From the UHGV virus genome UHGV-0020956: 64,000 bases of DNA. One strand, 5' to 3'. Source of the DNA: a virus. A program made the translations under genes and the position numbers. The number at the start of each line of letters is the position of its first letter. Within the stretch, counting starts at the first letter, position 1. Below, piece after piece: positions 6,365 to 63,042 of the stretch. The notes below the pieces were generated by a model that did not search any database, was not told where the DNA came from, and saw only the letters and a list, made by a program, of their open reading frames with translations.

Positions 6365-7558
6365 TTATTGCTTGTTCTTAACATCTAATACAATTTCTGC
6401 GTGATTTTTCCCTTGAAGTAAAGAATCTATTGCTTCTACAAGTTGTTGTTCTGTAGGAATTTCAAAATTTCCTTTTACTCGTAAAATTTTATAACCTTTA
6501 CTTCTAACGAAATAATCTCTTCTTATATCTCTTTTCTTATTTACTTCTAAATTGTGCCAATATTCTCCATCATATTCAATATCTATTTTTTCGCCTTGTG
6601 TTTCCAATAAGCAATCAAAAACCGCTCTTTCTAAAACAAAACCAAATATAACTTTACAATTTGGATAGGTTTCTTTTACAAGTTCACAAAGTTTCTTTTC
6701 TGGCTTAGAAGAACGAACATTACCATTTTCTGCCATAGATTCTATTGCTTTTTGCCTCATCTCTGGAACTTGTAAAATATAAGGTTTGCCATATTTTTTT
6801 AAAACAGTTTGTACCGCTTTATTCCTTGTTTCTAAAGATTCAAAAGCACTTTTTCTACCATATCTTTCTAAATTAGTTAATAATGCTCTTTCTCTTATTT
6901 CTGAAACTTGCATAGCATTTGGTTTACCATATTTTTCAATCATAGTTTTTTGTGCTTTTTCTTTTACTTCTGGTATTTGCATTGCATAAGGTTTTCCATA
7001 TTTATTCAAATTATTTTGAACTATTTTTTCTTTTACTTTAGAAGAAGCAAAAACATTAGAAACACCATATTTCTCTAAATTAGTTTGCTCAATTCTTTCT
7101 TTTATTTCAGGAATTTGTAATACACAACGCTTTCCATATTTTTCTAAATTAGTTTTTTCTATTTTCTTTTGAATATCTTTATTTTGAGCAGGAAAATCTA
7201 CTCCATATTTTTCTCTATTTGTATTTTTTAATTTTTCTTGTACACCTTCTATCCCCATAGGATTTGTTGTACCATATCTTTCCAAAAAAGTATTTTCTCT
7301 TTTTATTTGTGAACATTTTTTGCAATATAACTTACCGTCTTTTTCAGTATTTCTTAAATACCCAACATAAGTAATATTTAACTTTTTCCCACAAATATCA
7401 CAAAACGCTATTATTCTTTTTTGAGAAGAAGGAGGTAAATCTTTGAGTTTAACTTTAAATTTATCAAATCTTTTGGTATATTTATACCCTTTTTCAATAT
7501 AATAATTAAAATTTCTTCCTGCCCAAGTCATTTCAATTTCTTGGTTTTCGTCCATCAT
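6365..7558 (-). CDS. free-standing homing endonuclease-like protein: Zn-ribbon, 8 tandem ~23-aa KYG repeats, C-terminal Vsr/DUF559-like (EDxHD-type) nuclease domain
   Basis: 397 aa; repeats TNLEKYG[KV]..Q[IV]PE[VI]KEK; C-term IDIEYDGEYWH..RRD..KGYKILRV resembles DUF559/Vsr PD-(D/E)xK fold; architecture like I-Bth0305I-type enzymes. Confidence 0.55.
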   Translation of the reverse strand: MMDENQEIEMTWAGRNFNYYIEKGYKYTKRFDKFKVKLKDLPPSSQKRIIAFCDICGKKLNITYVGYLRNTEKDGKLYCKKCSQIKRENTFLERYGTTNPMGIEGVQEKLKNTNREKYGVDFPAQNKDIQKKIEKTNLEKYGKRCVLQIPEIKERIEQTNLEKYGVSNVFASSKVKEKIVQNNLNKYGKPYAMQIPEVKEKAQKTMIEKYGKPNAMQVSEIRERALLTNLERYGRKSAFESLETRNKAVQTVLKKYGKPYILQVPEMRQKAIESMAENGNVRSSKPEKKLCELVKETYPNCKVIFGFVLERAVFDCLLETQGEKIDIEYDGEYWHNLEVNKKRDIRRDYFVRSKGYKILRVKGNFEIPTEQQLVEAIDSLLQGKNHAEIVLDVKNKQ

Positions 7559-31029: not shown

Positions 31030-31102
31030 TGGGCGTTCGGCAAGCGGCAAAGCCACAGAGTTTTGATCTCTGCACCCACTGGTTCAAATCCAGTACGCCC
31101 AG
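31030..31102 (+). tRNA. tRNA-Gln (anticodon UUG)
   Basis: hand-folded cloverleaf: 7-bp acceptor tgggcgt/acgccca, D-arm with GG, anticodon stem cagag/ctctg, loop ttTTGat, T-arm actgg-ttcaaat-ccagt. Confidence 0.8.
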
Positions 31103-31981: not shown

Positions 31982-32055
31982 GGAACAATATTTCAACTGG
32001 CAGAAAATTCGGCTCATAACCGAAAAGTTATAGGTTCGAGTCCTATTTGTTCCAC
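31982..32055 (+). tRNA. tRNA-Met (anticodon CAU; could be elongator, initiator or lysidinylated Ile)
   Basis: canonical cloverleaf: acceptor ggaacaa/ttgttcc, D-stem tttc/gaaa, anticodon stem ttcgg/ccgaa loop ctCATaa, T-arm atagg-ttcgagt-cctat. Confidence 0.85.
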
Positions 32056-34561: not shown

Positions 34562-34600
34562 AACCCCTTAGTATAAACAAGTACAAGGGGTTCTTTTTTA
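34562..34600 (+). terminator. rho-independent terminator ending the early operon
   Basis: aacccctt...aaggggtt stem followed by TTTTTT. Confidence 0.7.
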
Positions 34601-35689
34601 TTTCCAACCAAGTTATCACAATCAGAACAAAAATCCCCTATACCCACTTTCTACGGACTGTTACCACCCTAAATCAGAACAAATCCCCCTAACTCAGAAC
34701 ACGTAAATCCACCCCATATTGCAAAATGCCACACAACGTCCAAGGGAACATTTATTTGCAATGTCTTATAAATTGGACACCTAGAACAGTAATAAAAACC
34801 ATTTAAGCCCTAAGACATTGCAAATCGCACATTCAAAAACGCCTACGCAGAAACCATTACATTTATACCCATGGGGGTATGGGTACTTTTCGCCAATAGT
34901 TCTTTTTAGAACCAATTTTTCGTTATTCATAATTTTTAATAACGCTCAGTGAATTGACAAGACAACTGACATTACAGGTGACAAGACAGTTGGCAAGACA
35001 ATTCTTAATTCTCCACTATGGTTATGATAAACCACACTCCCCAAAATCTAACCACCTACAAATACTCCCCTATACCGTTACAAGTCATTTAAAGACCCTT
35101 ACAAACGGTTTTAATAAGCAAGAAGATTAAGTTATCATGTGCGAACCGAAATGCTCACATTTGCCTTGTACTAAAAAGTGACACCTTGTTATGTTCCCCA
35201 AACCCCTACAGGAATAATAGTCAAACATTAAACCAGTATACCGGTATACGGCGAATGACCCTTAACCCCGGTACACAATCACCCCCCTATCAGATAATAT
35301 GTTATCTATTGTGAAGAGTAGATGATTAAGAGATAGAATTGCAAGAATTATAAGAGTAGATAAGGGATAAGAGGATTGAGGACTGGATAATATGTTGGCT
35401 ATTACATACTCGTAAATGTTATTCCACGATACCGCCTACGCCTATGAAACCACTAGGCATAAAGAGCAAAATGATACACACATTTTCGTCACATATATCT
35501 TAAATACTCTTAGACGATTTACTGTGTGTTATTGTGGTGAGAAATGGTATGAAAAGTATAGGGATTGAGAGTGGCGCAAAAGTGGAGTGTGATAGGGTAT
35601 GGGGATATGTCTTATCGTGTGTGTGCATTATATATAGTTATATATCCAGATTGAGATAGATGAATAAAATATGGGACAGATTGTAAGAG

Positions 35690-36075
35690 TGAAGAGTAGG
35701 TTAATTGGGATAATGATATGATGTGGGTTATAGGTATCATGAGTAAAAGGTATGTATGAGGGGGATATTGAGGGAAGAGATAAAAGATATGGGTGAGAGT
35801 GTGGATAGGGGATAGTGAAGAGATAATAAAAGATAATTGAGATAGGATATGGGGATAGGAAAGAGGCGAGAGGTTGATAAGGATAATGAGAGCAAGAGGT
35901 AAGATAAGTGATAAAGAGTGAACTGGGGGGTTGGGTGCTAAAGAGGGGATTAGGGGAGAACTGGAAAGGGAAATTGAAGTTGATGAGAAGTTGGGAAGTG
36001 AATGAGGGAACGGGAGGAACGAATGGGAAACATGAGGGTGAAATATTATAAAACTGATGGGTGGGAGTGTGAGGT
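35690..36075. repeat. C-depleted (G/A/T-only) block on top strand built from GGATAA/GATAAG/TGTGGATAG motifs
   Basis: about 11 C in ~390 nt by eye; repeated GATA(A/G)G units. Confidence 0.7.
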
Positions 36076-36219
36076 GTATCAGCTATGCCGAGGGTGCGAA
36101 AATCGTATATACGAATTGTCTGAAAATACCCCCAGTTAGGCATGACTAATAGAACAACTGTTCGACTTGTCCAGGGGAGGGGGCGGTATAGTCTGCTTGC
36201 ACCGGAGCAGAACGCCAAA

Positions 36220-36254
36220 AAACGTGTCTATAATAAATCATTATAGACACGTTT
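36220..36254. repeat. perfect palindrome (15-bp arms, 5-nt loop) at the symmetry centre of the two compositional blocks
   Basis: aaacgtgtctataat-aaatc-attatagacacgttt. Confidence 0.8.
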
Positions 36255-36419
36255 GTATGCAAGCGGTTGCACAAAATTGCATATTGCGTTGCATATAATG
36301 GAAAGTATTAGCGAAAGTGATATTTTTTTATAGATATATTTACAGGAGTTATAAGTGTATGTTAAAAAAGTGACGTAATAAGATAATGTTATATATGTGA
36401 TACCATATACCAGTATTAA

Positions 36420-37040
36420 CCATTATCCCTTATCTTCTATCCTCTGCTTTCCCGTCTTAATGTTTCTTAATGTTTCATGTGAAACATGTGTAATATATTT
36501 TATCCAAATCAATTCATATTTATATCGCATCACGTTTCCGTTTTTCCATCTTCCCATACCTTATATATACCATCTTTCATTCTTCCACCTATCAACCCAC
36601 TTTCCACCCGTCCATGCATCCCACTTTCTGCCAGATCCGTTTCGTTCCAATTCCGTTTCCGTTTCCGCTTATCCTAGTTCCCACACTTTAACATCTTGCA
36701 ATCATTCCCACTTGCTACCATATCGCATACTACTTTACATATATACTCATACCATATTATCACATACGCACATTACTTTACATAGTAACCATAACCACTC
36801 ACATAGTATTCAATACTACTTATAACGCTATTCACATTCTATAACACATTTTCCAATACTATCTCATATCCCTATTAATCCACTATGTTAATATGCAATC
36901 AATAACCCATTATCCCTATAGGTTAATATGTAAATCATAAATCCTATAACCCACTAACATAGTAGATTAATATATTATCATAAACCCACTTGCTTACTAT
37001 GTAATAAGCATTTTATAAACCTATTAACACACTATGTTAT
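36420..37040. repeat. G-depleted (C/T/A-only) block on top strand built from TTATCC/CTTATC motifs (reverse complement of left block motifs)
   Basis: G fraction by eye ~5%; TTATCC at ~36425, 36503, 36670, 36910; spurious long ORFs arise because only TAA stops are possible. Confidence 0.7.
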
Positions 37041-37992
37041 TGAATTGATATACAATTTATTAAGTTATTGCTATTGTTACCATTTTAGACAATACTTTTA
37101 TCACAACGGCTCAATTTTAGTCGATAGCTTAAAGTTATATGAAAACTATAGTTATTTAAGCAATAATGATACACATTAAAACGTCTAATATATATATTAT
37201 ATATGGCACGAAAATGTATGTGCTATTGTTTGCAAAATTGCTACAATTTTCATTATGTTAGCACAACTCCAATTTTTCGGTTTACATAAGGCGTAAATAT
37301 TCAGACTCAATTTGAATTTTAGATTAATTCAACTGTGCTTATTAATAAGTGGCATTTTTAATAAGTATATCTAATAATAAGTGGCAAGTGATAGTATGCC
37401 ATAAATGGTCAAATGCCGTTTAAAGCCCCTAGAAGCCATTTTAAGACGTTTTGGGGGCGTACCCTTATATTTTATCGCTGAACCTTTTCCAATGGAAACT
37501 ATGTTATATAGTATTGAAAACTATGTAATTATCTGACAATTTAGCGCTCATAAGTGGCAAGTGCTAGTAATTAGTTTGATACTCAAATGTTTTAGCAATC
37601 AACTGTATTGAGTGCTAACAAGTAAACATATGTGAACCGTTGCCATATATGAATAGTTGCTAACTATGAATTGTAAATAAATGTTTACTAACGGGCTTCT
37701 GGCATAAAGCAGATCACTTTGTATAGGCAGTGGGCTTACTATGCTTACTTATATATATGTATACACGCATAGGGCTTTATATGTGGGCTTGCGTATGCTT
37801 TTATATGGTATCCTGCTTTTTGTAAATCCCTTTATATAAGGAAGTGATACAATCGAACAAATGTTTTTTATGAAAAGTTTTTTATGAAAAGTGTATAGAA
37901 AATATACGATTTTTTGGTAGTTTTTACTATTGAGTATATCTATACATTTTGTTATAATCGATTTATCAAAAAAGATAAAGGAGAAAAAACCA

Positions 37993-38273
37993 TGTTAAAA
38001 TTTTATGCAAATAAGAAAGAAGCAAATTTAATTGAAAGATTGATTTATTGGTGCAATGAATTATCTTACAATATAGAAAGAAGTCCAGAAGATACAGAGT
38101 TTACTAATAAATGCAATAAAGAAATCAGATATTGTATGGAAGATTTACAAAAAATAGGCGTTTCAAGATATATTATTAAAAAATGCGTTAAAATAGGGCG
38201 TGACTGGCGTAAATGCTATAACAACTATTTAAAAGAGTTGTTAAAAGTAGAAAATATCTATATTCTACGATAA
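37993..38273 (+). CDS. hypothetical small protein (Cys-rich)
   Basis: RBS aaaggagaaaaaaccATG; 93 aa; own terminator follows. Confidence 0.45.
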
Positions 38274-38306: not shown

Positions 38307-38363
38307 ATATCTTTTTTGCTATCTGGATAAAATAAAAAATATAAAAAACATAATGAAAAGTAT

Positions 38364-38399
38364 TGACAATTATATAAATGTATGGTATATTATAACCAT
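38364..38399 (+). promoter_or_regulatory. conserved promoter copy 1: TTGACA-N14-TGGTATATTATAACCAT
   Basis: -35 TTGACA at 38364; extended -10 TGgTATATT embedded in near-palindrome tatggtatattataaccat. Confidence 0.6.
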
Positions 38400-38442
38400 G
38401 ATACAAATAAACAAAATTTAACAAAGAAAAGGAGAATGAATT

Positions 38443-39030
38443 ATGTCAAACTGTTATAATCTGGATGGAATTAAAAAGGATATTGAAAAGGAAATCGACC
38501 GTTATCAGTGCATGAAAAAAGAATGGGAAAGCGTAAAGTTTCCAACAAAGAAAAATGGTGAACCTTTTTCAATTATGAGCAAAAACTTTGAAAATGCTAC
38601 TTATATGGGTAGCACATACTTAGAACAGGGATACAAAGGTAAAGTATTAAATCCAACTTTGAAAGTTTGCTTTATCACTAACTTATCTGGTTATCACAAA
38701 GACGAATTGTATTTATATAAATACACAAAATACATGGATAAAAATGAATTTGTTGATAAAAGAGAAAAAAATACTTTTAATGGTATTTATATTTATGACT
38801 TAGAAGATATTAAGCAGGCTGTAAATGATAGAATTGAATATCTTGAAAAATATATCAATTCTTTAAAAAGACAACTGGAAATTGCTGATAAAGCGTATGT
38901 CACTTTCAGAAAAGCCTATGAAGATGCAATGTTGATTCTGAATACTGTTACAAATACGAAAAAAGATGAATACAGTTATTTAAAATCTGCTATCTTGGAT
39001 ACAATAAAAAATCGTTATCCATATTGCTAA
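38443..39030 (+). CDS. hypothetical protein
   Basis: 195 aa ORF with RBS aaaggagaatgaattATG. Confidence 0.5.
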   Translation: MSNCYNLDGIKKDIEKEIDRYQCMKKEWESVKFPTKKNGEPFSIMSKNFENATYMGSTYLEQGYKGKVLNPTLKVCFITNLSGYHKDELYLYKYTKYMDKNEFVDKREKNTFNGIYIYDLEDIKQAVNDRIEYLEKYINSLKRQLEIADKAYVTFRKAYEDAMLILNTVTNTKKDEYSYLKSAILDTIKNRYPYC

Positions 39031-39105
39031 AAAATTACATAGCGCAGAGGGAAAAATTTCCTCTGCCATATGTAAAAAATCAGAAAAGGAAAAGGAAAAT
39101 AGAAA

Positions 39106-39411
39106 ATGGATTTTAAAAATATTACAGTTAAAAGTCATAATCTTACAAATAACCAGATTGTAACAGAAGTTAAGACAGTAGGTGATAAAACGTTAGCTTA
39201 TTTTTTTAGTAGTTACGATTCTACAATATGTAAGCTAGACATTATAAACAATGTCATTTACGTTCACAAAAACTGGAATTTTTCAACAACAACAACAAAG
39301 TGGTTTAATAAATTCCTTTCTACTGTTCTGGAAGAAGAAATCAAGTTTAAAGGACAGAAAGAAATCAAAACAAAAAATAATACTTTTACAGTAATAATGC
39401 TTGACAAATAG
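39106..39411 (+). CDS. hypothetical protein
   Basis: 101 aa ORF with RBS. Confidence 0.45.
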   Translation: MDFKNITVKSHNLTNNQIVTEVKTVGDKTLAYFFSSYDSTICKLDIINNVIYVHKNWNFSTTTTKWFNKFLSTVLEEEIKFKGQKEIKTKNNTFTVIMLDK

Positions 39412-39474
39412 TGAAAAATGCTATATAATCTATTACAGAAGTAAAGAAAAACATTCATAGAAAAGGAGAAAATT

Positions 39475-40755
39475 ATGTATACTATCACAAATACACAGTG
39501 GTCTTTTAAGAAAGTTGCAGAGGAAATGAAAAAAGGAACTATTGATTTTAAGTGTGGTGGTGCGCAAAGAGGATTTGTTTGGGATAAAGCAAGACAGTCT
39601 TTGTTTGTACATTCTGGACTTAAAGGAGATCTTATTCCTTGTTTGTATATTCGTAGAATTATTGAGAAGGAAGTTGAACAGTGTGAGGAAGCCATCAAAG
39701 AAGTAAAAAAAGTAAAATATGTTTTTGAAACGAGGGACGGAAAACAAAGATGTACTACGATTTTAAAGTTTATTAATAATGAGTTTAAAACTTCTGGTAT
39801 TCCAGAGTATGAAGAAGGGGACAAACTTGATTATAGAATTGAACGCAACGGTGAACTTGTAAGCCCCAACGGTATTGGTTTTGAGGATTTAACAGAAGAT
39901 GAAAAATTGGACTTTTTAACGCGTTCTATTACTGTTTATTATATCGACAACGCAACGGACGCAGAAGCAGATATGATTTTCCTTAAGTTAAACAATGGAA
40001 AAGCATTGACTACCGCAGAAAGGAACAGAGCAGAAGCAAAGTCAAGAGGTGAAATCATTGATATTGCGAACCATGATATTTTTAAGCTGATGTTTAGCGA
40101 AAAAACGTTAGATAATAACGCATTTGATACCGTTGTAAAATCTTATATTATGTTAAATAATGATAATCCGTCACTGCTCAATAAGGACGTTAAACCGTTA
40201 ATGAAATCTATTGATATTACAGAAGCGGATAAAAAGGAGTTAAATGATATTTTTGATTATATTTTAGAAACTCACAACGTTCTGGAAAGTAAGAAAGTTA
40301 AAAAAAGAATTATTGGAAAGACAAGTTTCTTATCTTTAATTCCAGTTGCAGAACAGGCGTTAAATGATGGAAAGATTGCAGAAGAATTTGCAAGTTTTCT
40401 TGACAAGTTTTTCTCTGGAAAGACAACTAAAGAGCCAACAATCAGTACAACTTATAACGAAAACTTCTTTGATTCTTCCGCAAGCAGAATGAAGATTAGA
40501 TTAAGACACAACGCACTTATGAACGAATACGAAAGATTTTTCAATGGTGAAATTGAAAACGTATACAGTGAAAATGCTGAAGATTTACAGGAAGAAATTG
40601 ACGAAGCAGAAACCGTGGCAGAATACATTGATATTGACGAATTGAGTAAACCAGATGAAGAAGTGCAGACAGAGGAAAACAAAACAGATGAGCAGATAGA
40701 AGAAGCTACAGAACAGGAAACATCTGTAGAAGAAGCAGAAACAGAAGTATTTTAG
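39475..40755 (+). CDS. DUF262 (ParB-like nuclease/NTPase domain, GmrSD N-terminal type) protein with acidic C-terminal tail
   Basis: 426 aa; GGAQRGFVWD and DGKQRCTT correspond to the (I)xFQR..VW and DGQQR signatures of DUF262; C-terminus EEVQTEENKTDEQIEEATEQETSVEEAETEVF. Confidence 0.65.
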   Translation: MYTITNTQWSFKKVAEEMKKGTIDFKCGGAQRGFVWDKARQSLFVHSGLKGDLIPCLYIRRIIEKEVEQCEEAIKEVKKVKYVFETRDGKQRCTTILKFINNEFKTSGIPEYEEGDKLDYRIERNGELVSPNGIGFEDLTEDEKLDFLTRSITVYYIDNATDAEADMIFLKLNNGKALTTAERNRAEAKSRGEIIDIANHDIFKLMFSEKTLDNNAFDTVVKSYIMLNNDNPSLLNKDVKPLMKSIDITEADKKELNDIFDYILETHNVLESKKVKKRIIGKTSFLSLIPVAEQALNDGKIAEEFASFLDKFFSGKTTKEPTISTTYNENFFDSSASRMKIRLRHNALMNEYERFFNGEIENVYSENAEDLQEEIDEAETVAEYIDIDELSKPDEEVQTEENKTDEQIEEATEQETSVEEAETEVF

Positions 40756-40843
40756 TTAAGATTGAAAAGAGATTGAAAAGAGCGTGTATAAAAGCACGTT
40801 CTTTTTTTACTGTAAAAAATATAAAAAAGTATAAATAAACTAT

Positions 40844-40880
40844 TGACATATCAATGTTTATATGGTATATTATAACCATA
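40844..40880 (+). promoter_or_regulatory. conserved promoter copy 2
   Basis: ttgacatatcaatgtttatatggtatattataaccata. Confidence 0.6.
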
Positions 40881-40907
40881 GAAATTAAAGCAAAGGAGAA
40901 CAAATAC

Positions 40908-41198
40908 ATGAGAAAAATTTTATTAACAATTTTGGGAACAGCAGGGTTTATTGGATTATTCGCTTTCTGCTGTACACTTGCAAACAGAACAGAAGTAATG
41001 ACTTGTGTTTCTTGTACAGGTAATGACATTGTATCAACGTTTGAAGATGCAGACGGTAACTTGTGGGAGTATGAACATTACTACGCAGTTGTTGGTGATG
41101 ATTACAAGGTTACAATGCACGATAACGATACAATCAATATTTATGATGATTTTATTGTTAAAGTTGTGCCAAATAAAAGGAGAAAAAGTTATGTATAA
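40908..41198 (+). CDS. small secreted/lipoprotein-like protein
   Basis: RBS aaaggagaacaaatacATG; MRKILLTILGTAGFIGLFAFCC signal-like N-terminus. Confidence 0.45.
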   Translation: MRKILLTILGTAGFIGLFAFCCTLANRTEVMTCVSCTGNDIVSTFEDADGNLWEYEHYYAVVGDDYKVTMHDNDTINIYDDFIVKVVPNKRRKSYV

Positions 41199-41373
41199 AA
41201 AAATTAACGTTTTTTTAAATGGAAATTATCTTTTTAGTACCAATAAATTTAAACGTTGCAAAGACGTTATAAACCACATTAGAGCAGTAAAGCATATATG
41301 TATTGCTAGTATTCCAGACAAGTATATTACTGTTTATGATTATGATAAGTTAGTGGCAAAGTTTGAAAAATAA
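41191..41373 (+). CDS. hypothetical small protein (61 aa)
   Basis: RBS aaaaggagaaaaagttATG overlapping previous gene stop. Confidence 0.4.
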   Translation: MYKKINVFLNGNYLFSTNKFKRCKDVINHIRAVKHICIASIPDKYITVYDYDKLVAKFEK

Positions 41374-41394
41374 TCAAAAAGTTATAATATACCA

Positions 41395-41441
41395 TTGACA
41401 AAGTTGTAAATCAGTGGTATATTATAACCATAAAAACAAGT
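41395..41441 (+). promoter_or_regulatory. conserved promoter copy 3
   Basis: ttgacaaagttgtaaatcagtggtatattataaccat. Confidence 0.6.
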
Positions 41442-41476
41442 ACAAATGATAACAAATAGTAAAGGAGAAAATAAAA

Positions 41477-41785
41477 ATGAAAAACGAAAAGATTCTGGAA
41501 ATGTTAAACAATGGTGAAATTGAGGAACTGAAAAAAGCAATCTCAGAGGAAATTTATAATGATTCTCTGGATAAAAATAGCAATGCAAAATCCAGATATA
41601 AAGCAATGAAGGATTTTTATAAATTTCCTAGTAATAAGACAGATACTAGGCTTTTAAAACCTTGTAAAAAGTCGATTAGAGGACAGCTTTATAATTGCTT
41701 TCTTAGCCCAGACATTCTGGTATGTAGTAAAGAAAGCACTGGAAATATTGAACTTTTTAACGAAAAAGAAGAAAGTAGAGAATAG
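41477..41785 (+). CDS. hypothetical protein; in-frame TAG followed by 112 further sense codons (to 42141)
   Basis: 102 aa to TAG at 41783; same frame stays open with no plausible restart codon/RBS until TAA at ~42139. Confidence 0.45.
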   Translation: MKNEKILEMLNNGEIEELKKAISEEIYNDSLDKNSNAKSRYKAMKDFYKFPSNKTDTRLLKPCKKSIRGQLYNCFLSPDILVCSKESTGNIELFNEKEESRE

Positions 41786-42163
41786 TTTAATCCAGAAAAA
41801 TTAATTGACGCAAGTAATTTTGAAATCGTTGAAAACATTGATTTTAATGATATTCTTTCAGAAGCTAAAAGTAAAGGTTTTAAACCAGTAAAAAAGGAAA
41901 TTAAATACGGAGAATGTGCCAAGTATTATTTACATTTCAGAAACGCCTACTATAAGATAGGGCTTCTGAATAAAGGTTATAGCATTATAGATGGTGGAAA
42001 GTATCAAGAAGTATTCTATAGAGGAAGTACAACTCCATTATTTATTTACAACTCTTTGGGAATAGTGATGTTGCTACCAGTAAGAATCAACATAGCTTTA
42101 AAGGATGCCGAAGATAAAAACTTTGTATACGTTGAAAGATAAAAGAAAAGAGGATAAAAGACA

Positions 42164-42412
42164 ATGGCAGTATTAAAAAATGACGAATTGGAAACAATGA
42201 ACAGAATCAATAACATTTTAAATTTAACAACTTATGAAAGTGCTGTATTTTATGAAAATCTCACAGAAGAACAGAAAACAGATATTGTAAAGTTTGCTAG
42301 ACTTATAGGTAAACTGGAAAATGATAGGGATATGCAAAGAGTGCGTACTAAATTAGCGAACAGGAAAAAACGAAAAATCAACAAAGATTATGGAAGAAGA
42401 AAGCAAGCATAA
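42164..42412 (+). CDS. hypothetical small basic protein
   Basis: 82 aa; followed by terminator aagcaagcataacgcttgctttt+T-run. Confidence 0.45.
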   Translation: MAVLKNDELETMNRINNILNLTTYESAVFYENLTEEQKTDIVKFARLIGKLENDRDMQRVRTKLANRKKRKINKDYGRRKQA

Positions 42413-42653
42413 CGCTTGCTTTTCTTTTTTTGACTGCGTACAAACTAAAATAACAGGGTTTAAGCTTTAAGGGATAATGTATCATGTAATGAATTAAAAT
42501 TGCTTGTAGTGGCTTGTAGTGCGTTGTAGCCGTATTCCAGATCGGGTTTATCCGATTATCCGGTTAAGTTGTCCGGTTTATCTGTATCCGGTTATCCGGT
42601 GTTAGCTGTTTTTATAATCATAATAAAAATCATTGCATTTTTTAAAATAACTA

Positions 42654-42682
42654 TTGACAAAGTATATGAAAAGTATTATAAT
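42654..42682 (+). promoter_or_regulatory. promoter (TTGACA-17-TATAAT) driving conserved short leader/sRNA candidate
   Basis: ttgacaaagtatatgaaaagtattataat. Confidence 0.5.
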
Positions 42683-42895
42683 TAAGATAGTTAAAAAAGA
42701 ATAGTTGTGGTGGAGAGTCCTAGCCCAGATATAGGAAAAACACGGAAGTTGCAATTTTTTAAATGTCAGAATATTTAAAAGAAATTGTAGAAAAGTGATA
42801 CAATTTAATTTTAAAATAATGCTTGATTTAATAGGGAAAAGTGGTATAATTAAACCATAGTTAAATAACATATAAAAACAAAGGAGAATAAAAAC

Positions 42896-43729
42896 ATGGC
42901 AAAAAATGTATATGAAATGGTAACAGATAGAATTATTGAAGAATTAGAAAAAGGCGTTATTCCTTGGAAAAAACCTTGGAAAAGTATTTCCAACGGAGCA
43001 TATAACAGAGTAAGTAAAAAACCTTATAGTTTACTTAATCAGCTTATGCTAAAGCATGAAGGAGAATATGCAACTTTTAAACAGTGGCAGGAAATGGGCG
43101 GAAAAATCAAAAAAGGAGCAAAGTCTGAATTTGTAGTGTTCTGGAAAATGTTAGCAGTTGAAGAAGAAAAAGACGGTGCTACTATTACAAAGACAATACC
43201 AATGTTACGGTATTACAACGTATTCCACATTTCACAGGTTGAAGGCGTTGAACCTTTGGAAACTGTAGAAGCTACACACAATGAACCAATAGAAGAAGCC
43301 GAAAAAGTGAAAAATGGTTATAGCACTAGGGAAAATATCCAGATCATAGAAGAAGTCGGAAATAAAGCATTTTATAGTCTTAGTGGGGATTATATCTGTA
43401 TCCCGTGTAAGGAGCAGTTTGAAAAAATCAATGAATACTACAGCACTGCCTTTCATGAAATGGTTCATAGTACTGGACACAAGAAAAGACTTGATAGATT
43501 AGTTAATGCCAAGTTTGGAAGTGAAAAGTACAGCAAAGAAGAACTGGTAGCAGAAATAGGTTCGGCAATGATTTTAAACGAACTGGGAATTGAAACATCA
43601 GATACATTTGAAAACTCTACAGCTTATATTCAGAGTTGGTTACAAGTTTTAAAAAATGATAGTAAGTTTATTGTTAGTGCTTCTGGAAAAGCAGAAAAAG
43701 CAGTAAAGTATATCTTAGGAATTGAATAA
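42896..43729 (+). CDS. ardC: ArdC-like antirestriction protein (N-terminal ssDNA-binding domain plus zincin-like metalloprotease domain)
   Basis: N-terminus VYEMVTDRIIEELEKGVIPWKKPW is the ArdC-N signature; C-terminal HEMVHSTGH HExxH motif. Confidence 0.8.
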   Translation: MAKNVYEMVTDRIIEELEKGVIPWKKPWKSISNGAYNRVSKKPYSLLNQLMLKHEGEYATFKQWQEMGGKIKKGAKSEFVVFWKMLAVEEEKDGATITKTIPMLRYYNVFHISQVEGVEPLETVEATHNEPIEEAEKVKNGYSTRENIQIIEEVGNKAFYSLSGDYICIPCKEQFEKINEYYSTAFHEMVHSTGHKKRLDRLVNAKFGSEKYSKEELVAEIGSAMILNELGIETSDTFENSTAYIQSWLQVLKNDSKFIVSASGKAEKAVKYILGIE

Positions 43730-43740
43730 AGCACAGGATA

Positions 43741-43770
43741 AAAGGACTTGAAAAAGTCCTTTTATTTTTT
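43741..43770 (+). terminator. rho-independent terminator
   Basis: aaaggacttgaaaaagtcctttt + T-run. Confidence 0.7.
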
Positions 43771-43790
43771 GAAAAATATTATATAAACCA

Positions 43791-43827
43791 TTGACAAAAC
43801 TATGATACTATGGTATACTTAAACCAT
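43791..43827 (+). promoter_or_regulatory. conserved promoter copy 4 (variant -10 palindrome tatggtatacttaaaccat)
   Basis: ttgacaaaactatgatactatggtatacttaaaccat. Confidence 0.55.
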
Positions 43828-44022
43828 ACAAAAGATGTGGGGAATCCTAGCAGAGAAATGGCAGAAGATAGGGCAAACAGCCAAGATGCAATTTTTTAGC
43901 TGCCTGATAATTCTAATGTTTTCTTATAATATTCTAAACATTTATCTGTGATATTCCATTGACTTTTATATATAAATTTGCTATAGTATGTATGATTATA
44001 AACGGAAGGAAGTGAAAAAAAT

Positions 44023-44172: not shown

Positions 44173-44900
44173 TTTACAATCGCATATAAAGCCGATATAA
44201 AGCGAATAAAGCATAGGCATAAGCAGAGGAAAAATCTTCTGTTTATGCCTATTTTTTATTTCAGAAAAATCAGATACAGAAGTGATCGGAGTTGTCCAGA
44301 ATAAACCTATTTAATTAGTATGAATTGCTACAAGCTAAAATTAGCCGTTTTAATGTGTCAATGGTAACTAATTCAAGTAAACGTGTAAAATGCCTAGAAA
44401 CGGCTTGTAATGCGTTATAACATGGTTTAAATGGTTCTCAAGCTGTCTGGAAAGCTGAAAACTACAGATTATCCGGTGTTGTGTTATCCGGTTTACTGTA
44501 TGAGATTTTTCCGGTAAATAAAAAATAGCGTTTAATTTTGAAATCTTTAAAGGAAATTTGAACAGAATTGTTGAATTGTTTGAAACAATTTACAATCGAA
44601 CAAGTGTTTGGGAATTATCTTTCAGAATTTTCTGAATTTTCCCAAGGGTAAGAAATTTCCCCAGAATATGTGAGAATGATTTTCTCCGCGGAACTGGTGG
44701 GGATTTTCGTTTTGGTAATAGCGAGATTTAAAAATTTCCCCACGGAGTTTTAAAATTGTTTTTATTTTTTTCTTTTGTTTTTTTATTGTTTAAACATTTT
44801 CTTTTATAATCTTTATCTTATCTATTGACAAAACCAAATGTTTATGTTATTCTTTTATATAGAAATCATTAGTGCATAACGAAAGGAGAAAAATTTTTTT

Positions 44901-45442: not shown

Positions 45443-46036
45443 ATGAAAGGATTTAGAAAAGTGGAAACTACCCCCTCTATTGACAGAAAGAAATTAGCAG
45501 AAGAAAACCACAAACTTATCTATTGGTTTTGTTGGAAAAACCATTTAGATTTAGAAGAGTGGTATGATATAATTGCTATTGGATATATGAAAGGTATTAA
45601 TTCTTATGATGAAACAAAAGGCGTTAAATTAAGCACTTACTTAATTAGGATAATGAAAAATGAATATCTATTAGTATTAAAAAACAAAAAATATGCTAAA
45701 TATATTCCAGATGAAGAAATTTTATCTTTGGATTTTGAATATAAATTTGATAAAGATAAAGAGAGTTATAGTATTTTAGATTTCGTTGTGAATGAAAATT
45801 CGTTTTTTGAAAATGATGTTTGTTTTAAGATTGATATTAAAAAAGCGTTTAGTGAACTGAAAATCTCAAAGCGTAATTATGAAATTTTCATACAGAGATT
45901 ACAAGGTGACACATTAGAGAAAATAGCTTCTGATTTTGGAATAACAAGAGAAAGAGTTAGAATGATATGTAAAGATGTAGGGAAAAAATTAAAACATAAA
46001 TTAGATGAAAATGGAGTGAATTATTTTGAAAACTAA
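45443..46036 (+). CDS. RNA polymerase sigma factor (sigma-70 family, regions 2 and 4)
   Basis: region 2-like ENHKLIYWFCWKN...GYMKGINSYDETKGVKLSTYLIRIMKNEYL; region 4 HTH TLEKIASDFGITRERVRMICKDVGKKLKHKL. Confidence 0.65.
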   Translation: MKGFRKVETTPSIDRKKLAEENHKLIYWFCWKNHLDLEEWYDIIAIGYMKGINSYDETKGVKLSTYLIRIMKNEYLLVLKNKKYAKYIPDEEILSLDFEYKFDKDKESYSILDFVVNENSFFENDVCFKIDIKKAFSELKISKRNYEIFIQRLQGDTLEKIASDFGITRERVRMICKDVGKKLKHKLDENGVNYFEN

Positions 46037-48670: not shown

Positions 48671-48919
48671 ATGGAAAGAGTATATTATAGAGTAAAATTT
48701 AATAGTAAAGATGATTTATTTCAGTTCAACAAATGGGCTGACAGTTGCAGTTATAATATTGATGTTAGGTACAACAGTAAGGTTTTAGACGGTAAATCCT
48801 TAATTGGACTGATGGGTATGGATATTACTAACCCTATCATTGTTATCTTGTATACCGATAACGCTAATGATTTTGTTGAGAAATTTAGCAATATTATCCT
48901 TGACAAAATTGTAATGTAG
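48671..48919 (+). CDS. HPr-like phosphocarrier-fold protein lacking the His15 site
   Basis: 82 aa; KVLDGKSLIGLMGMDITNPIIVILYTDNANDFVEKFSNI aligns with HPr [31 protein letters not shown]; no GIHARPA His motif. Confidence 0.45.
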   Translation: MERVYYRVKFNSKDDLFQFNKWADSCSYNIDVRYNSKVLDGKSLIGLMGMDITNPIIVILYTDNANDFVEKFSNIILDKIVM

Positions 48920-54851: not shown

Positions 54852-55976
54852 GTGATATTGTTGGAAAAGGGTTTTAAGTATAGAATTTATCCAAATAAGA
54901 AACAGCAAGAGTTAATACAGAAAACGTTTGGCTGTTGTAGATATGTTTATAATTATTTCTTAGATAAAAGAATAACTGAGTATAAAGAAAATAAAAAGAC
55001 TTTAAGTTTTTATGATACAAATAAAATGCTTACTCAATTAAAGAAAGAAAACGAATGGCTTAAAGAACCAGATAAAAATGCTTTGCAAATAGCGTTAAGA
55101 AATTTAGATAAAGCTTATAAAAAATTTTTTAAACAACAGTCTGGCTATCCTAAATTTAAGTCTAAGAAAAATAATTATCAATCTTATACTACAAGTTGTA
55201 ATAAAAAAGTGCATAAAGATACAATAAGGATTGAAAACAAACATATCAGACTTCCAAAATTAGGTTTTGTAAAAATTCGTGATAAACAAGTTCCGCAAGG
55301 AAGAATACTTAATGCTACTATATCGCAAGAACCAAATGGACATTATTATTGTTCGTTATGTTGCACTGATATAGAATTTCCACAATATCCAAAAACAAAT
55401 AAAAATGTTGGAATAGATTTAGGAATTGTAGATTTTGCAATCTTATCTGACGGTATTAAGATTAAAAATCCTAGATTTTATGAAAAGTCAGAAAAGAAAC
55501 TTGCTAAGTTACAAAAAGAATTATCGAGAAAAACAATCGGTGGCTCTAATTGGAATAAAGCAAGAATTAAAGTTGCAAAACTATATAAACATATATCTAA
55601 TCAACGCAAAGATTTTTTACAGAAATTAACTACTAATTTTGTAAGACAATATGATATTATTTGTATTAAAGATTTAAGTATTAAATCTATGAAAGAAATA
55701 AGTTCAAAAATTCGTAACAAACATTTGGAAGATGTTTCATGGTTTGAATTTCGCAGAATGTTGACTTATAAATCTACATGGTATGGAAAGATATTATCTG
55801 TAATTGATAGATATTTTCCTTCTTCACAAATTTGTCATTGTTGTGGTGCTAATGGAGGTAAAAAGTCTGTTGAGATTAGATACTGGATTTGTTCTAACTG
55901 TGGTTCAAAATTAGATAGGGACGATAATGCTTCTATTAATATTTTGAATGAAGGAATGAGAATTTTAAGTGTTTAA
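54852..55976 (+). CDS. tnpB: IS200/IS605-family TnpB (RNA-guided nuclease-type transposon protein)
   Basis: 374 aa; N-terminal KGFKYRIYPNKKQQELIQKTFGCCRYVYN; C-terminal Zn finger CHCCG..CSNCGSK and RuvC-III DRDDNASINILN. Confidence 0.85.
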   Translation: MILLEKGFKYRIYPNKKQQELIQKTFGCCRYVYNYFLDKRITEYKENKKTLSFYDTNKMLTQLKKENEWLKEPDKNALQIALRNLDKAYKKFFKQQSGYPKFKSKKNNYQSYTTSCNKKVHKDTIRIENKHIRLPKLGFVKIRDKQVPQGRILNATISQEPNGHYYCSLCCTDIEFPQYPKTNKNVGIDLGIVDFAILSDGIKIKNPRFYEKSEKKLAKLQKELSRKTIGGSNWNKARIKVAKLYKHISNQRKDFLQKLTTNFVRQYDIICIKDLSIKSMKEISSKIRNKHLEDVSWFEFRRMLTYKSTWYGKILSVIDRYFPSSQICHCCGANGGKKSVEIRYWICSNCGSKLDRDDNASINILNEGMRILSV

Positions 55977-61752: not shown

Positions 61753-63042
61753 ATGGGAAAGTTTATAGATATGACTGGTTGGAGAATGTCAGAACATGGT
61801 GTTCCAAATAGTAGGTTGACTGTTATTGAAAGAGCAGAAGATACTTTTAGTCCAAAAGGTTCGAGAATTACTAATTGGAAATGTAAATGCGATTGTGGAA
61901 AAATAAAAGTTATACAAGGTACAGCATTAAGAAAAGGTGTTGTTTTATCTTGTGGCTGTTATCATCTTGAGTTGCTTTTAGCAAGTGTTAAAAGTAGAAA
62001 AATGGTTAATAAATATGTTGATAAAGGTGACTATTTAGAAGGTTATGACGGAAAAGGTAATTGCTTTTTAATTGATAAAGACGATTATAATAAAGTAAAA
62101 GATTACCGTTGGAATATGGACAATCATGGATATTGGTGTTATAGCACTTCTTCTAAAGAAAATGGTCGAACCAGAATAAAAATGCATAAATTGATTTGCC
62201 CCTCACCTTCTAAAGATTTAGTAGTAGACCATTATAATAGAAATCGTTCTGATAATAGAAAAAACAATTTGTTTTTAAAAACACCTAGAGAAAATGGAAT
62301 AAATAAAGAAATTCCTTCTAATAATACTTCTGGATTTATTGGTGTCAGCCAAAGAAAAGACGGGTATTGGGTAGTAAGAATTAATACTGACGTTGATAAA
62401 ACAAGGATGATTAGTAGTTTTGCAACAAAAGAAGAAGCTTTAATATGTAGATTAAACTTTGAAAAATTGTATTACAAAGAAAATGCTCCACAAAGACATT
62501 TATTTGAAGAATATAATATAACAGAAGAAGGTGCAAAAGAATATTGTAATCAAATTTTTAAAAGAATTGATAATACAAGTGGAACAATGGGTGTTTTTAA
62601 AAGAGAAAATAAAGATACATGGCGAGTAGAAATTAGGGTAAAAAATGAAAGAAAAAATTTTGGTAGTTTTACAAATAAAGAAGAAGCTATAAGAGTTAGA
62701 CTTCTTATGGAAAAATATTATTATGGTGACAATGCTTTACAGAAAAATCTTTTTGATAAATATAACATTACTTTAGAAGAAGCTATAAAGTTTCATGATG
62801 ATTTTTATAAAAAGAAAGAAATAGAAAAAGAAAAGAAAAAAGATAAAATAACAGGTGTAAGCTATTCAGAAAAAATAAAAAAATGGGAAGTTTATATTTG
62901 TGTTAATAGAAAAAATATATACTTAGGTGCTTATAAAGATAAGAATGATGCTATTATAGCGAGATTAAAAGGTGAAATAAAATATAGAGGTAAGGATAAC
63001 GCACCACAGAAACATTTATTTAAACAATACGGAATAGAGTAG
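61753..63042 (+). CDS. HNH homing endonuclease with three AP2-type DNA-binding repeats (free-standing)
   Basis: HNH motif VVDHYNRNRSDNRKNNL; AP2-like repeats SGFIGVSQRKDGYWVVRI, SGTMGVFKRENKDTWRVEIRV, KITGVSYSEKIKKWEVYICV; flanked by duplicated gtaggtgataatatg. Confidence 0.75.
   Translation: MGKFIDMTGWRMSEHGVPNSRLTVIERAEDTFSPKGSRITNWKCKCDCGKIKVIQGTALRKGVVLSCGCYHLELLLASVKSRKMVNKYVDKGDYLEGYDGKGNCFLIDKDDYNKVKDYRWNMDNHGYWCYSTSSKENGRTRIKMHKLICPSPSKDLVVDHYNRNRSDNRKNNLFLKTPRENGINKEIPSNNTSGFIGVSQRKDGYWVVRINTDVDKTRMISSFATKEEALICRLNFEKLYYKENAPQRHLFEEYNITEEGAKEYCNQIFKRIDNTSGTMGVFKRENKDTWRVEIRVKNERKNFGSFTNKEEAIRVRLLMEKYYYGDNALQKNLFDKYNITLEEAIKFHDDFYKKKEIEKEKKKDKITGVSYSEKIKKWEVYICVNRKNIYLGAYKDKNDAIIARLKGEIKYRGKDNAPQKHLFKQYGIE

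Follow-up and report, generated by a model that had tools for sequence, protein, structure and literature searches.

In T4-like phages, the elements known as PeSLs (promoter-early stem-loop) are described as consensus early promoters preceded by an AT-rich block and accompanied by stem-loops, which in some cases extend over the -35/-10 (Arbiol et al. 2010, PMC2839356). They cluster in hyperplastic regions upstream of ORFans, where recombination between PeSLs creates insertions and deletions (PMC2839356; Comeau et al. 2014, PMC4122927). Here we describe a family of repeated promoter units in a 64,000-nucleotide stretch of the UHGV virus genome UHGV-0020956, hereafter called the window, and we favour, at a probability of about 60%, reading them as paralogous strong early promoters for RNA polymerase carrying the primary sigma factor of the host, the core of which doubles as a recombination linker in a PeSL-like manner. 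Two other systems invite comparison. The morons of lambdoid phages, which Juhala and colleagues are said to have described in 2000, are reportedly promoter-gene-terminator units. The strong early promoters of T5 and the A1-A3 promoters of T7 reportedly conserve sequence beyond their hexamers, as Gentz and Bujard are said to have found in 1985; we know of no report that gives them a role in cassette recombination.

The window holds five full promoters of the class, at 38363, 40843, 41395, 42823 and 43791 (P1, P2, P3, P5 and P4, respectively), together with two remnants, and all five lie between 38.3 and 43.9 kb, in an accessory early island of variable gene content. The same strong host-type promoter design heads at least five separate accessory cassettes, including that of an anti-restriction gene. 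Four of these sites, P1 to P4, had been claimed by an earlier, sequence-only reading of this DNA and are present where it placed them: each has a TTGACA, and the motif box starts 14 nt downstream in each case. The 17-mer TGGTATATTATAACCAT occurs exactly in three copies, at 38383, 40863 and 41415, and P4 carries the variant TGGTATACTTAAACCAT at 43811. When up to three mismatches to the 17-mer were allowed, a scan of the window returned 9 matches against 0.68 expected, a number reached by none of 100 shuffles, and TGGT-N8-ACCA occurred 7 times against 0.55 expected. A repeat search placed the four sites in a single direct-repeat family of 67 nt, with 66-76% identity, which takes in an A-rich block at about -60 to -45. 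The fifth promoter, P5, is absent from the sequence-only reading; it has TTGATT (TTGACT in relatives), a 16-nt spacer and TGG-TATAAT-TAAACCATA, and stands upstream of the gene for ArdC. A near-copy at 11796-11812 (GGCTATATTATAACCAT, 15 of 17 positions) has no -35, lies inside a minus-strand coding region and was judged a coincidence.

P1 to P4 match the sigma-A consensus at 11 of 12 positions and have both the TG of an extended -10 and a 17-nt spacer, and P5 matches at 10 of 12, again with the TG; the members of the class are the best-scoring promoter sites of the region, in agreement with the earlier proposal that they are promoters. The idea that they form one shared class was also borne out, this class being confined to the accessory early island and kept in related phages. 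Its instances in the window were pooled with those of ten IMG/VR and genome loci and of six metagenome loci, which gave 35 distinct promoters from about 8 paralogous loci, and their common pattern is TTGAC(A/T)-N14-T.GTATA.T..AACCAT(A/G). The -35 TTGAC(A/T), the T.GTATA.T and the AACCAT are conserved at 94-100% over the 35 instances, and the spacer and leader are near random; position by position, the counts in the core, out of 35, are T34 G32 G35 T35 A35 T34 A35 n T35 n n A35 A34 C33 C33 A35 T35 R35. The TG at -15/-14 is found in 32 of the 35, the -10 being preceded by TATG or AGTG, the TRTG -16 element of Gram-positive promoters, and in the block that precedes the -35, most positions have nothing but A or T. 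The putative transcription start (+1) would be the A of CCAT.

The core stands apart from its surroundings in two comparisons. When the 8 paralogous loci are set against one another, their cores have an identity of 0.86, compared with 0.41 for the spacers and 0.38 for the leaders, the shuffled expectation being 0.33-0.38; between orthologues, the core is frozen and the spacer and leader have diverged, and other promoters, such as that at 43959, vary in their -10 and discriminator. Divergence of spacer and leader around a frozen core argues that the core block is under constraint and not merely young. About 10 further near-consensus TTGACA-17-TATAAT promoters on the plus strand have no shared downstream block, and the other strong promoters of the phage (39401, 42654, 43959, 47079 and others) lack the G(-13) and the AAC(-4..-2).

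Most of the promoters are arranged as starts of independent transcription units. A strong ribosome-binding site and start codon follow P1, P2, P3 and P5 at 40-60 nt, and predicted terminators adjoin P1, P2 and P4 upstream; P5 has no adjacent one. The sequence-only reading had placed each site upstream of a different accessory gene, which holds for P1 to P3 but not for P4, where a non-coding stretch of about 75 nt follows and the first open reading frame (ORF) beyond it (43988) is served by its own promoter at 43959. P3 sits in an 18-bp inverted repeat with arms at 41381-41398 (GTTATAATATACCATTGA) and 41412-41429 (TCAGTGGTATATTATAAC), spanning the -35 and the -10; the repeat folds as DNA at -12 kcal/mol (z = -6.7) and is kept in all relatives. 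On the minus strand, its left arm is itself an extended -10-like element (TGGTATATT), from which antisense transcription could start.

The second part of our reading comes from the comparison of relatives (given here by our L numbers), which differ by entire promoter-bounded cassettes. In L022, L032 and L050, P5 and ArdC are separated by an additional gene (155-162 aa), together with a terminator and a promoter, L009 and L033 are without ArdC and the neighbouring cassettes, and in L004 the P3 gene is directly followed by the gene for a sigma-like protein. The alignments with relatives break at 38334 and 41359, where the P1 and P3 units have their 5' edges. Three junctions were resolved to the nucleotide. 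The promoter of L232 is 100% identical to P5 of L230 over the stretch from -75 through the final core base, and identical to P4 of L230 from the core onward; it is the product of a P5 x P4 crossover that deleted ArdC. In L234 and L232, the same cassette follows two unlike upstream halves, one of them P5-like and the other P3-like. P5 of the window and P5 of L022 agree fully through the core and for 9 nt past it, and diverge from there. The 18-nt core is thus the point to which the crossovers between relatives map, a role that the sequence-only reading had overlooked. Recombination functions are encoded in the window itself, in the form of a Sak4-like annealing protein and a RecJ-like exonuclease. 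ArdC, which is intact in the window and in L022, is split into ORFs of 116 and 89 aa in L032 (13023-13860) and L050 (2883-3720), where it is probably a pseudogene.

In the mechanism that we propose, a sigma-A type RNA polymerase of the host would read the whole family as strong early promoters. Each unit comprises an A/T-rich block, TTGAC(A/T), a spacer of 17 bp (16 bp in P5), a TRTG/extended -10, TATAnT and the fixed start region AACCAT(A/G); most lie directly past a predicted terminator, whereas in P3 the -35 and -10 are themselves part of a stem-loop. Every unit heads a cassette of its own, these cassettes encoding ORFans, a GmrSD_N/DUF262 protein, the anti-restriction protein ArdC or a non-coding element, and the short homology offered by the near-identical 18-nt core would allow crossovers that insert, delete and re-partner cassettes between related phages. 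The palindrome would be mostly a by-product, since the TRTG element and the CAT(A/G) start are mutually reverse complementary.

Several points weigh against this explanation. None of the paralogues departs from G(-13), A(-4), A(-3) and C(-2); generic promoters of other phages accept any base at -13 and have AGCA nearly as frequently as ACCA. Since both these generic promoters and the phage's own other promoters do without the fixed bases, RNA polymerase alone is not their obvious cause, and any reason for the fixed G(-13) and AAC(-4..-2) is conjectural. Promoter activity, early timing and the start site are what we infer from agreement with the consensus. As regards recombination, 18 nt is short for homologous exchange, the three free positions of the core are homogenised only partly, although recombination should homogenise them too, and the crossover cases number about 4, from about 15 related contigs. 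Finally, an adjacent terminator is found at P1, P2 and P4 only.

The fixed bases are also what gives weight to a regulatory alternative. The sequence-only reading saw in the core an 18-19 bp near-palindrome, of which the symmetric arms stand, spanning 4 bp in all copies (TGGT/ACCA) and reaching 5-6 bp in a few (TATGGT/ACCATA), but not the remainder, the 8-bp centre being asymmetric and variable (ATATTATA, ATAATTAA, ATACTTAA, ATAGTGTA). A hairpin or cruciform role was rejected, as the dyad folds at -1.6 to -2.6 kcal/mol, no better than shuffles. The TGGT-N8-ACCA (to TATGGT-N8-ACCATA) lying over the -10 to +1 could, however, be the operator of a dimeric phage or host protein that switches the class off, or on, as a whole, for example by shutting off the anti-defence island once middle genes start, and we regard this as a genuine if minor possibility. 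The dyad lies across the -10 and +1, where repressors classically bind. Three bases that generic promoters do not need, G(-13), A(-3) and C(-2), exactly complete the symmetry left open by the TG/-12T and C-1/A+1; L234 has a symmetric double variant, TAGT...ACTA; and the class is restricted to one island, where interspersed promoters of other types have no dyad. Nevertheless, most of the symmetry can be accounted for by polymerase elements, TATG (-16) being set against CATA (C-1 A+1 T+2 A+3), plus T(-12), and completion of the dyad by chance has a roughly estimated probability of 0.05-0.1, which makes it suggestive only. The flanks are asymmetric, the base 5' of TGGT being free (A16/G16/C3) and ACCA being followed by a fixed T and then A/G, and A(-4) has no symmetric partner. 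Four single-arm variants occur in otherwise intact promoters (TGGT..ACTA, TGGT..GCCA and, ahead of ArdC in two lineages, TAGT..ACCA), and the copies at 35019 and 41378 resemble decayed or rearranged promoter cores, not independent operators. As to a possible binding protein, Pfam searches of 20 early proteins detected no helix-turn-helix or other DNA-binding domain in the small ones, a structure-based search for remote homologues being outside their scope; no protein co-occurs uniquely with the class across the relatives, in a comparison that was not discriminating, and gene 44901 is missing from L004, which keeps P2 and P3. The geometry, 4-bp arms around an 8-bp AT-rich centre, is that of LexA-type operators, the E. 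coli SOS box CTGT-N8-ACAG being likewise a 16-bp site able to overlap a -10; these differ in arm sequence, and among the proteins of the window we identified no repressor of LexA-like or S24-family type. The LexA box of Firmicutes is GAAC-N4-GTTC, so the core is not a host SOS box. A bifunctional core, at once a recombination linker for anti-defence and ORFan cassettes and an operator timing the whole immediate-early island as a regulon, appears to us rather doubtful; if it were true, an incoming cassette would automatically come under the same temporal control.

Two further alternatives concern the polymerase itself. In one, the class has no specificity, the block being simply the optimal core promoter of the host and its fixed bases a host preference kept from an ancestral promoter. 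The exact 17-mer does occur 14 nt after TTGACA-like hexamers in unrelated phages and Clostridia chromosomes, CA-T starts after AT-rich discriminators are general, and the phage has TGG-TATA(A/T)T without ACCA elsewhere, upstream of 7558 and 16334 and at 48900. However, a scan of 185,579 genomes gave 63 exact matches to the 17-mer, about the chance number (by our own estimate some 70 for a 17-mer in 1.2e12 positions). Some of the matches in Clostridia chromosomes have promoter context, one of them before a CIRCE element in a heat-shock promoter; these show only that TGGTATATT makes a good extended -10, and a host-wide element was rejected. A scan of IMG/VR for TTGAC-N15-TGnTATATTATAACCA outside the clade gave, for base n of TGn, A17, C12, G9 and T9, so that G(-13) is not coupled to ACCA in general, and outside the clade ACCA has only about 1.7 times the frequency of AGCA; with CC replaced by SS in the same part of IMG/VR, there were about 73 CC, 37 GC, 10 GG and 0 CG stretches. 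These controls leave as general only a C-1 A+1 T+2 start after an AT-rich discriminator, and a motif conserved across phages was rejected as well. Other promoters of this phage come equally close to the consensus and are themselves conserved, yet they do without the block, and a mere host optimum seems unlikely. In the cultured relatives PMBT24, CB457P1 and CB473P3, whose promoters are of the form TTGACA-N12-tATGA-TATAAT, we found no promoter of the class, no ACCA class and no common block after the -10. The class is a clade-specific elaboration of an ordinary promoter design. A literature search for the sequence strings found no paper containing them. The other alternative, raised by the sequence-only reading, is that the phage sigma-like protein (45443-46036) specifically reads these promoters; in that event, we would expect its regions 2/1.2 to recognise G(-13) and the discriminator. 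By Pfam, this protein has sigma-70 regions 2 and 4, it matches phage sigma-factor PHROGs, and it is only 27-28% identical to its syntenic homologue in the Enterocloster phages, where neighbouring proteins reach 46-58%, a fast evolution that could accompany a change of specificity. Against it, the sites are near-perfect matches to the sigma-A consensus of the host, whereas known sigma factors of phages, SPO1 gp28 among them, use motifs unlike that consensus; they lie ahead of the sigma-like gene, itself served by a sigma-A-type promoter at 44825, and drive genes whose products have to act first, that for ArdC being an example; and syntenic homologues of the protein are present in PMBT24, CB457P1 and CB473P3, all without the motif class. 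We therefore set this proposal aside as highly improbable. The regions upstream of the minus-strand genes, viewed by eye and without a motif finder, showed no clear common motif that could serve as a late promoter for the phage sigma factor.

The coordinates of the units and of the associated features are collected in Table 1.

Table 1. Promoter units of the island, their terminators and cassettes, and related elements (positions in the window).
Feature	Position	Strand	Description
Intrinsic terminator before P1	38280..38301	+	8-pair stem with 5 GC, then T-run
P1 unit	38333..38400	+	A-rich block; -35 TTGACA 38363-38368; TATG -16 element; -10 TATATT 38386-38391; core TGGTATATTATAACCATG 38383-38400
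P1 downstream genes			195-aa ORF (38443); 101-aa ORF; GmrSD_N/DUF262 protein (39475-40755)
Terminator hairpin before P2	40778..40803	+	AAGAGCGTG-N8-CACGTTCTT, then T-run
P2 unit	40813..40880	+	-35 40843-40848; core 40863-40880
P2 downstream genes			96-aa protein with signal-peptide-like N-terminus (40908-41198); 60-aa ORF (41191-41373)
P3 unit	41365..41432	+	-35 41395-41400; core 41415-41432; downstream 102-aa ORF at 41477
Inverted partial core copy, 14 nt	41378..41394	-	TGGTATATTATAACTTT; abuts the P3 -35; left arm of the P3 inverted repeat
P5	42823..42859	+	core TGGTATAATTAAACCATA 42842-42859; downstream ArdC (42896-43729)
Terminator hairpin before P4	43738..43765	+	TAAAAGGAC-N8-GTCCTTTTA, then T-run
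P4 unit	43761..43828	+	-35 43791-43796; core TGGTATACTTAAACCATA 43811-43828; non-coding stretch downstream, no ORF
Conserved non-coding element	43829..43915	+	3' of P4; paralogue of 42700-42780, which is 3' of promoter 42654
Core-like box without -35	35019..35034	-	TGGTTTATCATAACCA in the window, TGGTATATCATAACCATA in relatives; inside the 3.3-kb non-coding region

Among the products of these cassettes, the 195-aa protein of P1 is an ORFan, and ArdC has ArdcN and zincin metallopeptidase domains by Pfam. The non-coding element that follows P4 and its paralogue share the order GTGGnGAnnTCCTAGC...ATAGGnnAAACA...GCAATTTTTTA, and an alignment shows that L029 carries a chimera of the two. For the P4 transcript and these paralogous elements we obtained no Rfam family, no covariation and no supported fold (z = -0.37). 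A role of the motif at the RNA level was considered and rejected: with a putative start at its 3' end, the motif would be missing from the RNA, and the P4 transcript has neither an Rfam match nor a supported fold. Intergenic clusters of TTATCCGG / GTTTATCCG repeats, together with three copies of GCTTGTAGTG, are found at 42503-42600 and 44470-44500, upstream of the promoters 42654 and 44825, and look like iterons or binding-site arrays.

The island lies immediately to the right of an ORF-free region of about 3.3 kb (34.6-37.9 kb), with one small gene in between (37992-38273, with its own promoter at 37930). This region (34600-37900) has no credible ORFs and an extreme strand bias, being G-poor at 34.6-35.3 kb and again at 36.4-37.05 kb, and C-free and purine-rich at 35.3-36.06 kb, where there are degenerate GGGATA/GAGATA-type repeats. 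It is kept at 73-90% in the relatives, and an ORF-poor region of several kb is syntenic in the Enterocloster phages (82.5-86.8 kb in CB457P1 and 92.6-95.8 kb in CB473P3); it could be a replication origin or a packaging or injection-related region. The core-like box at 35019-35034 is probably a decayed copy of the core. Directly to its left, at 34955-35005, are four GACAAGACA-like direct repeats, also kept in the relatives, which may be iterons bound by a protein.

To judge from its genes, the window belongs to a large tailed phage of a virulent-type siphophage lineage with genomes of about 100 kb. The portal and virion genes are on the minus strand, at 1-24 kb, and the early and replication genes on the plus strand from about 24.5 kb, including those for the Sak4-like annealing protein, a DnaB-like helicase, a primase, the RecJ-like exonuclease, a tyrosine recombinase and the sigma-like protein. 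Among cultured phages, the nearest relatives are PMBT24 and CB457/CB473, Enterocloster bolteae phages of about 100 kb with portals 75% identical to that of the window, and PMBT24 is a virulent, pac-type siphovirus (PMC11035940). No near-identical phage has been deposited, a megablast of the island against the deposited phages giving no match, and most of the island ORFs have no homologue in the Enterocloster phages. The closer relatives are uncultured IMG/VR contigs of about 83-106 kb with 75-93% DNA identity; a protein-anchored search for more distant ones returned the same close clade only (1+6 viral loci and 6 metagenome loci). The clade is represented at full length by IMG/VR 3300045988_133818, _140312, _130590, _130225 and _123867, by OGFE01000111 and by CAAGHO010000049. 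One whole contig of the clade (L043/L050, CAAGHO010000049.1, 85.8 kb) is binned in a 'Bacilli bacterium' metagenome-assembled genome from the human gut (HGM10839), a binning that is either an artefact or a weak hint of the host; Enterocloster, the host of the cultured relatives, belongs to the Clostridia. A transposase-family gene (phrog_506, E = 2e-126) lies between the helicase and primase genes, and homing/HNH endonuclease genes interrupt the virion and replication modules, the coordinates of these selfish elements being 54852-55976, 6365-7558 and 61753-63042. The early region also contains genes for tRNA-Gln(TTG) and tRNA-Met(CAT), at 31030-31102 and 31982-32055.

If the linker reading is correct, the PeSL principle would not be peculiar to T4-like coliphages, as it would also be present in an unrelated lineage of gut siphophages of about 100 kb whose cultured relatives infect Enterocloster. 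The core motif would provide a simple marker for the variable anti-defence island and for the cassette boundaries in these phages, and the units offer a compact and probably very strong promoter design for Clostridia-type hosts.

How do these units compare with the systems described before? Like the early promoters of T5 and the A1-A3 promoters of T7, they have an A-rich upstream block, a conserved stretch from the -10 to the start and C-1 A+1 T+2, and they would serve first-expressed genes that include anti-restriction functions; the T5 and T7 promoters have other hosts and other sequences, and what they conserve downstream is ascribed to effects on promoter clearance and strength. Like morons, they are autonomous units in which a promoter and a terminator flank one or a few accessory genes, set between other genes and variably present among relatives; in contrast, morons are usually expressed from the prophage and have unrelated promoters, whereas here one shared design is found in the early region of an apparently virulent phage, with exchange via the promoter. 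From PeSLs, to which they have no sequence homology, the window units differ in that: (i) they belong to a siphovirus kin to Enterocloster phages, not to a T4-like myovirus, and have a Gram-positive-type sigma-A promoter with a TRTG/extended -10; (ii) their conservation is tight and falls in the 18-nt core of -10 and start, while that of PeSLs is spread over about 100 bp; and (iii) their terminator is usually a separate, AT-poor hairpin upstream, where PeSLs have a polyG/polyC stem inside the promoter. Because the phage is related to the siphovirus PMBT24, the family is analogous to the PeSLs of T4-like phages and does not belong among them. In spite of these differences, both systems share a repeated early promoter motif for the host sigma factor, with an AT-rich block and, at most of the window units, a putative terminator or stem-loop, in a variable region upstream of auxiliary genes and ORFans. 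Each has cases of an inverted repeat that covers part of the -10 or the -35, and in both, insertions, deletions and replacements between close relatives are bounded by the motif and leave chimeric motifs behind.

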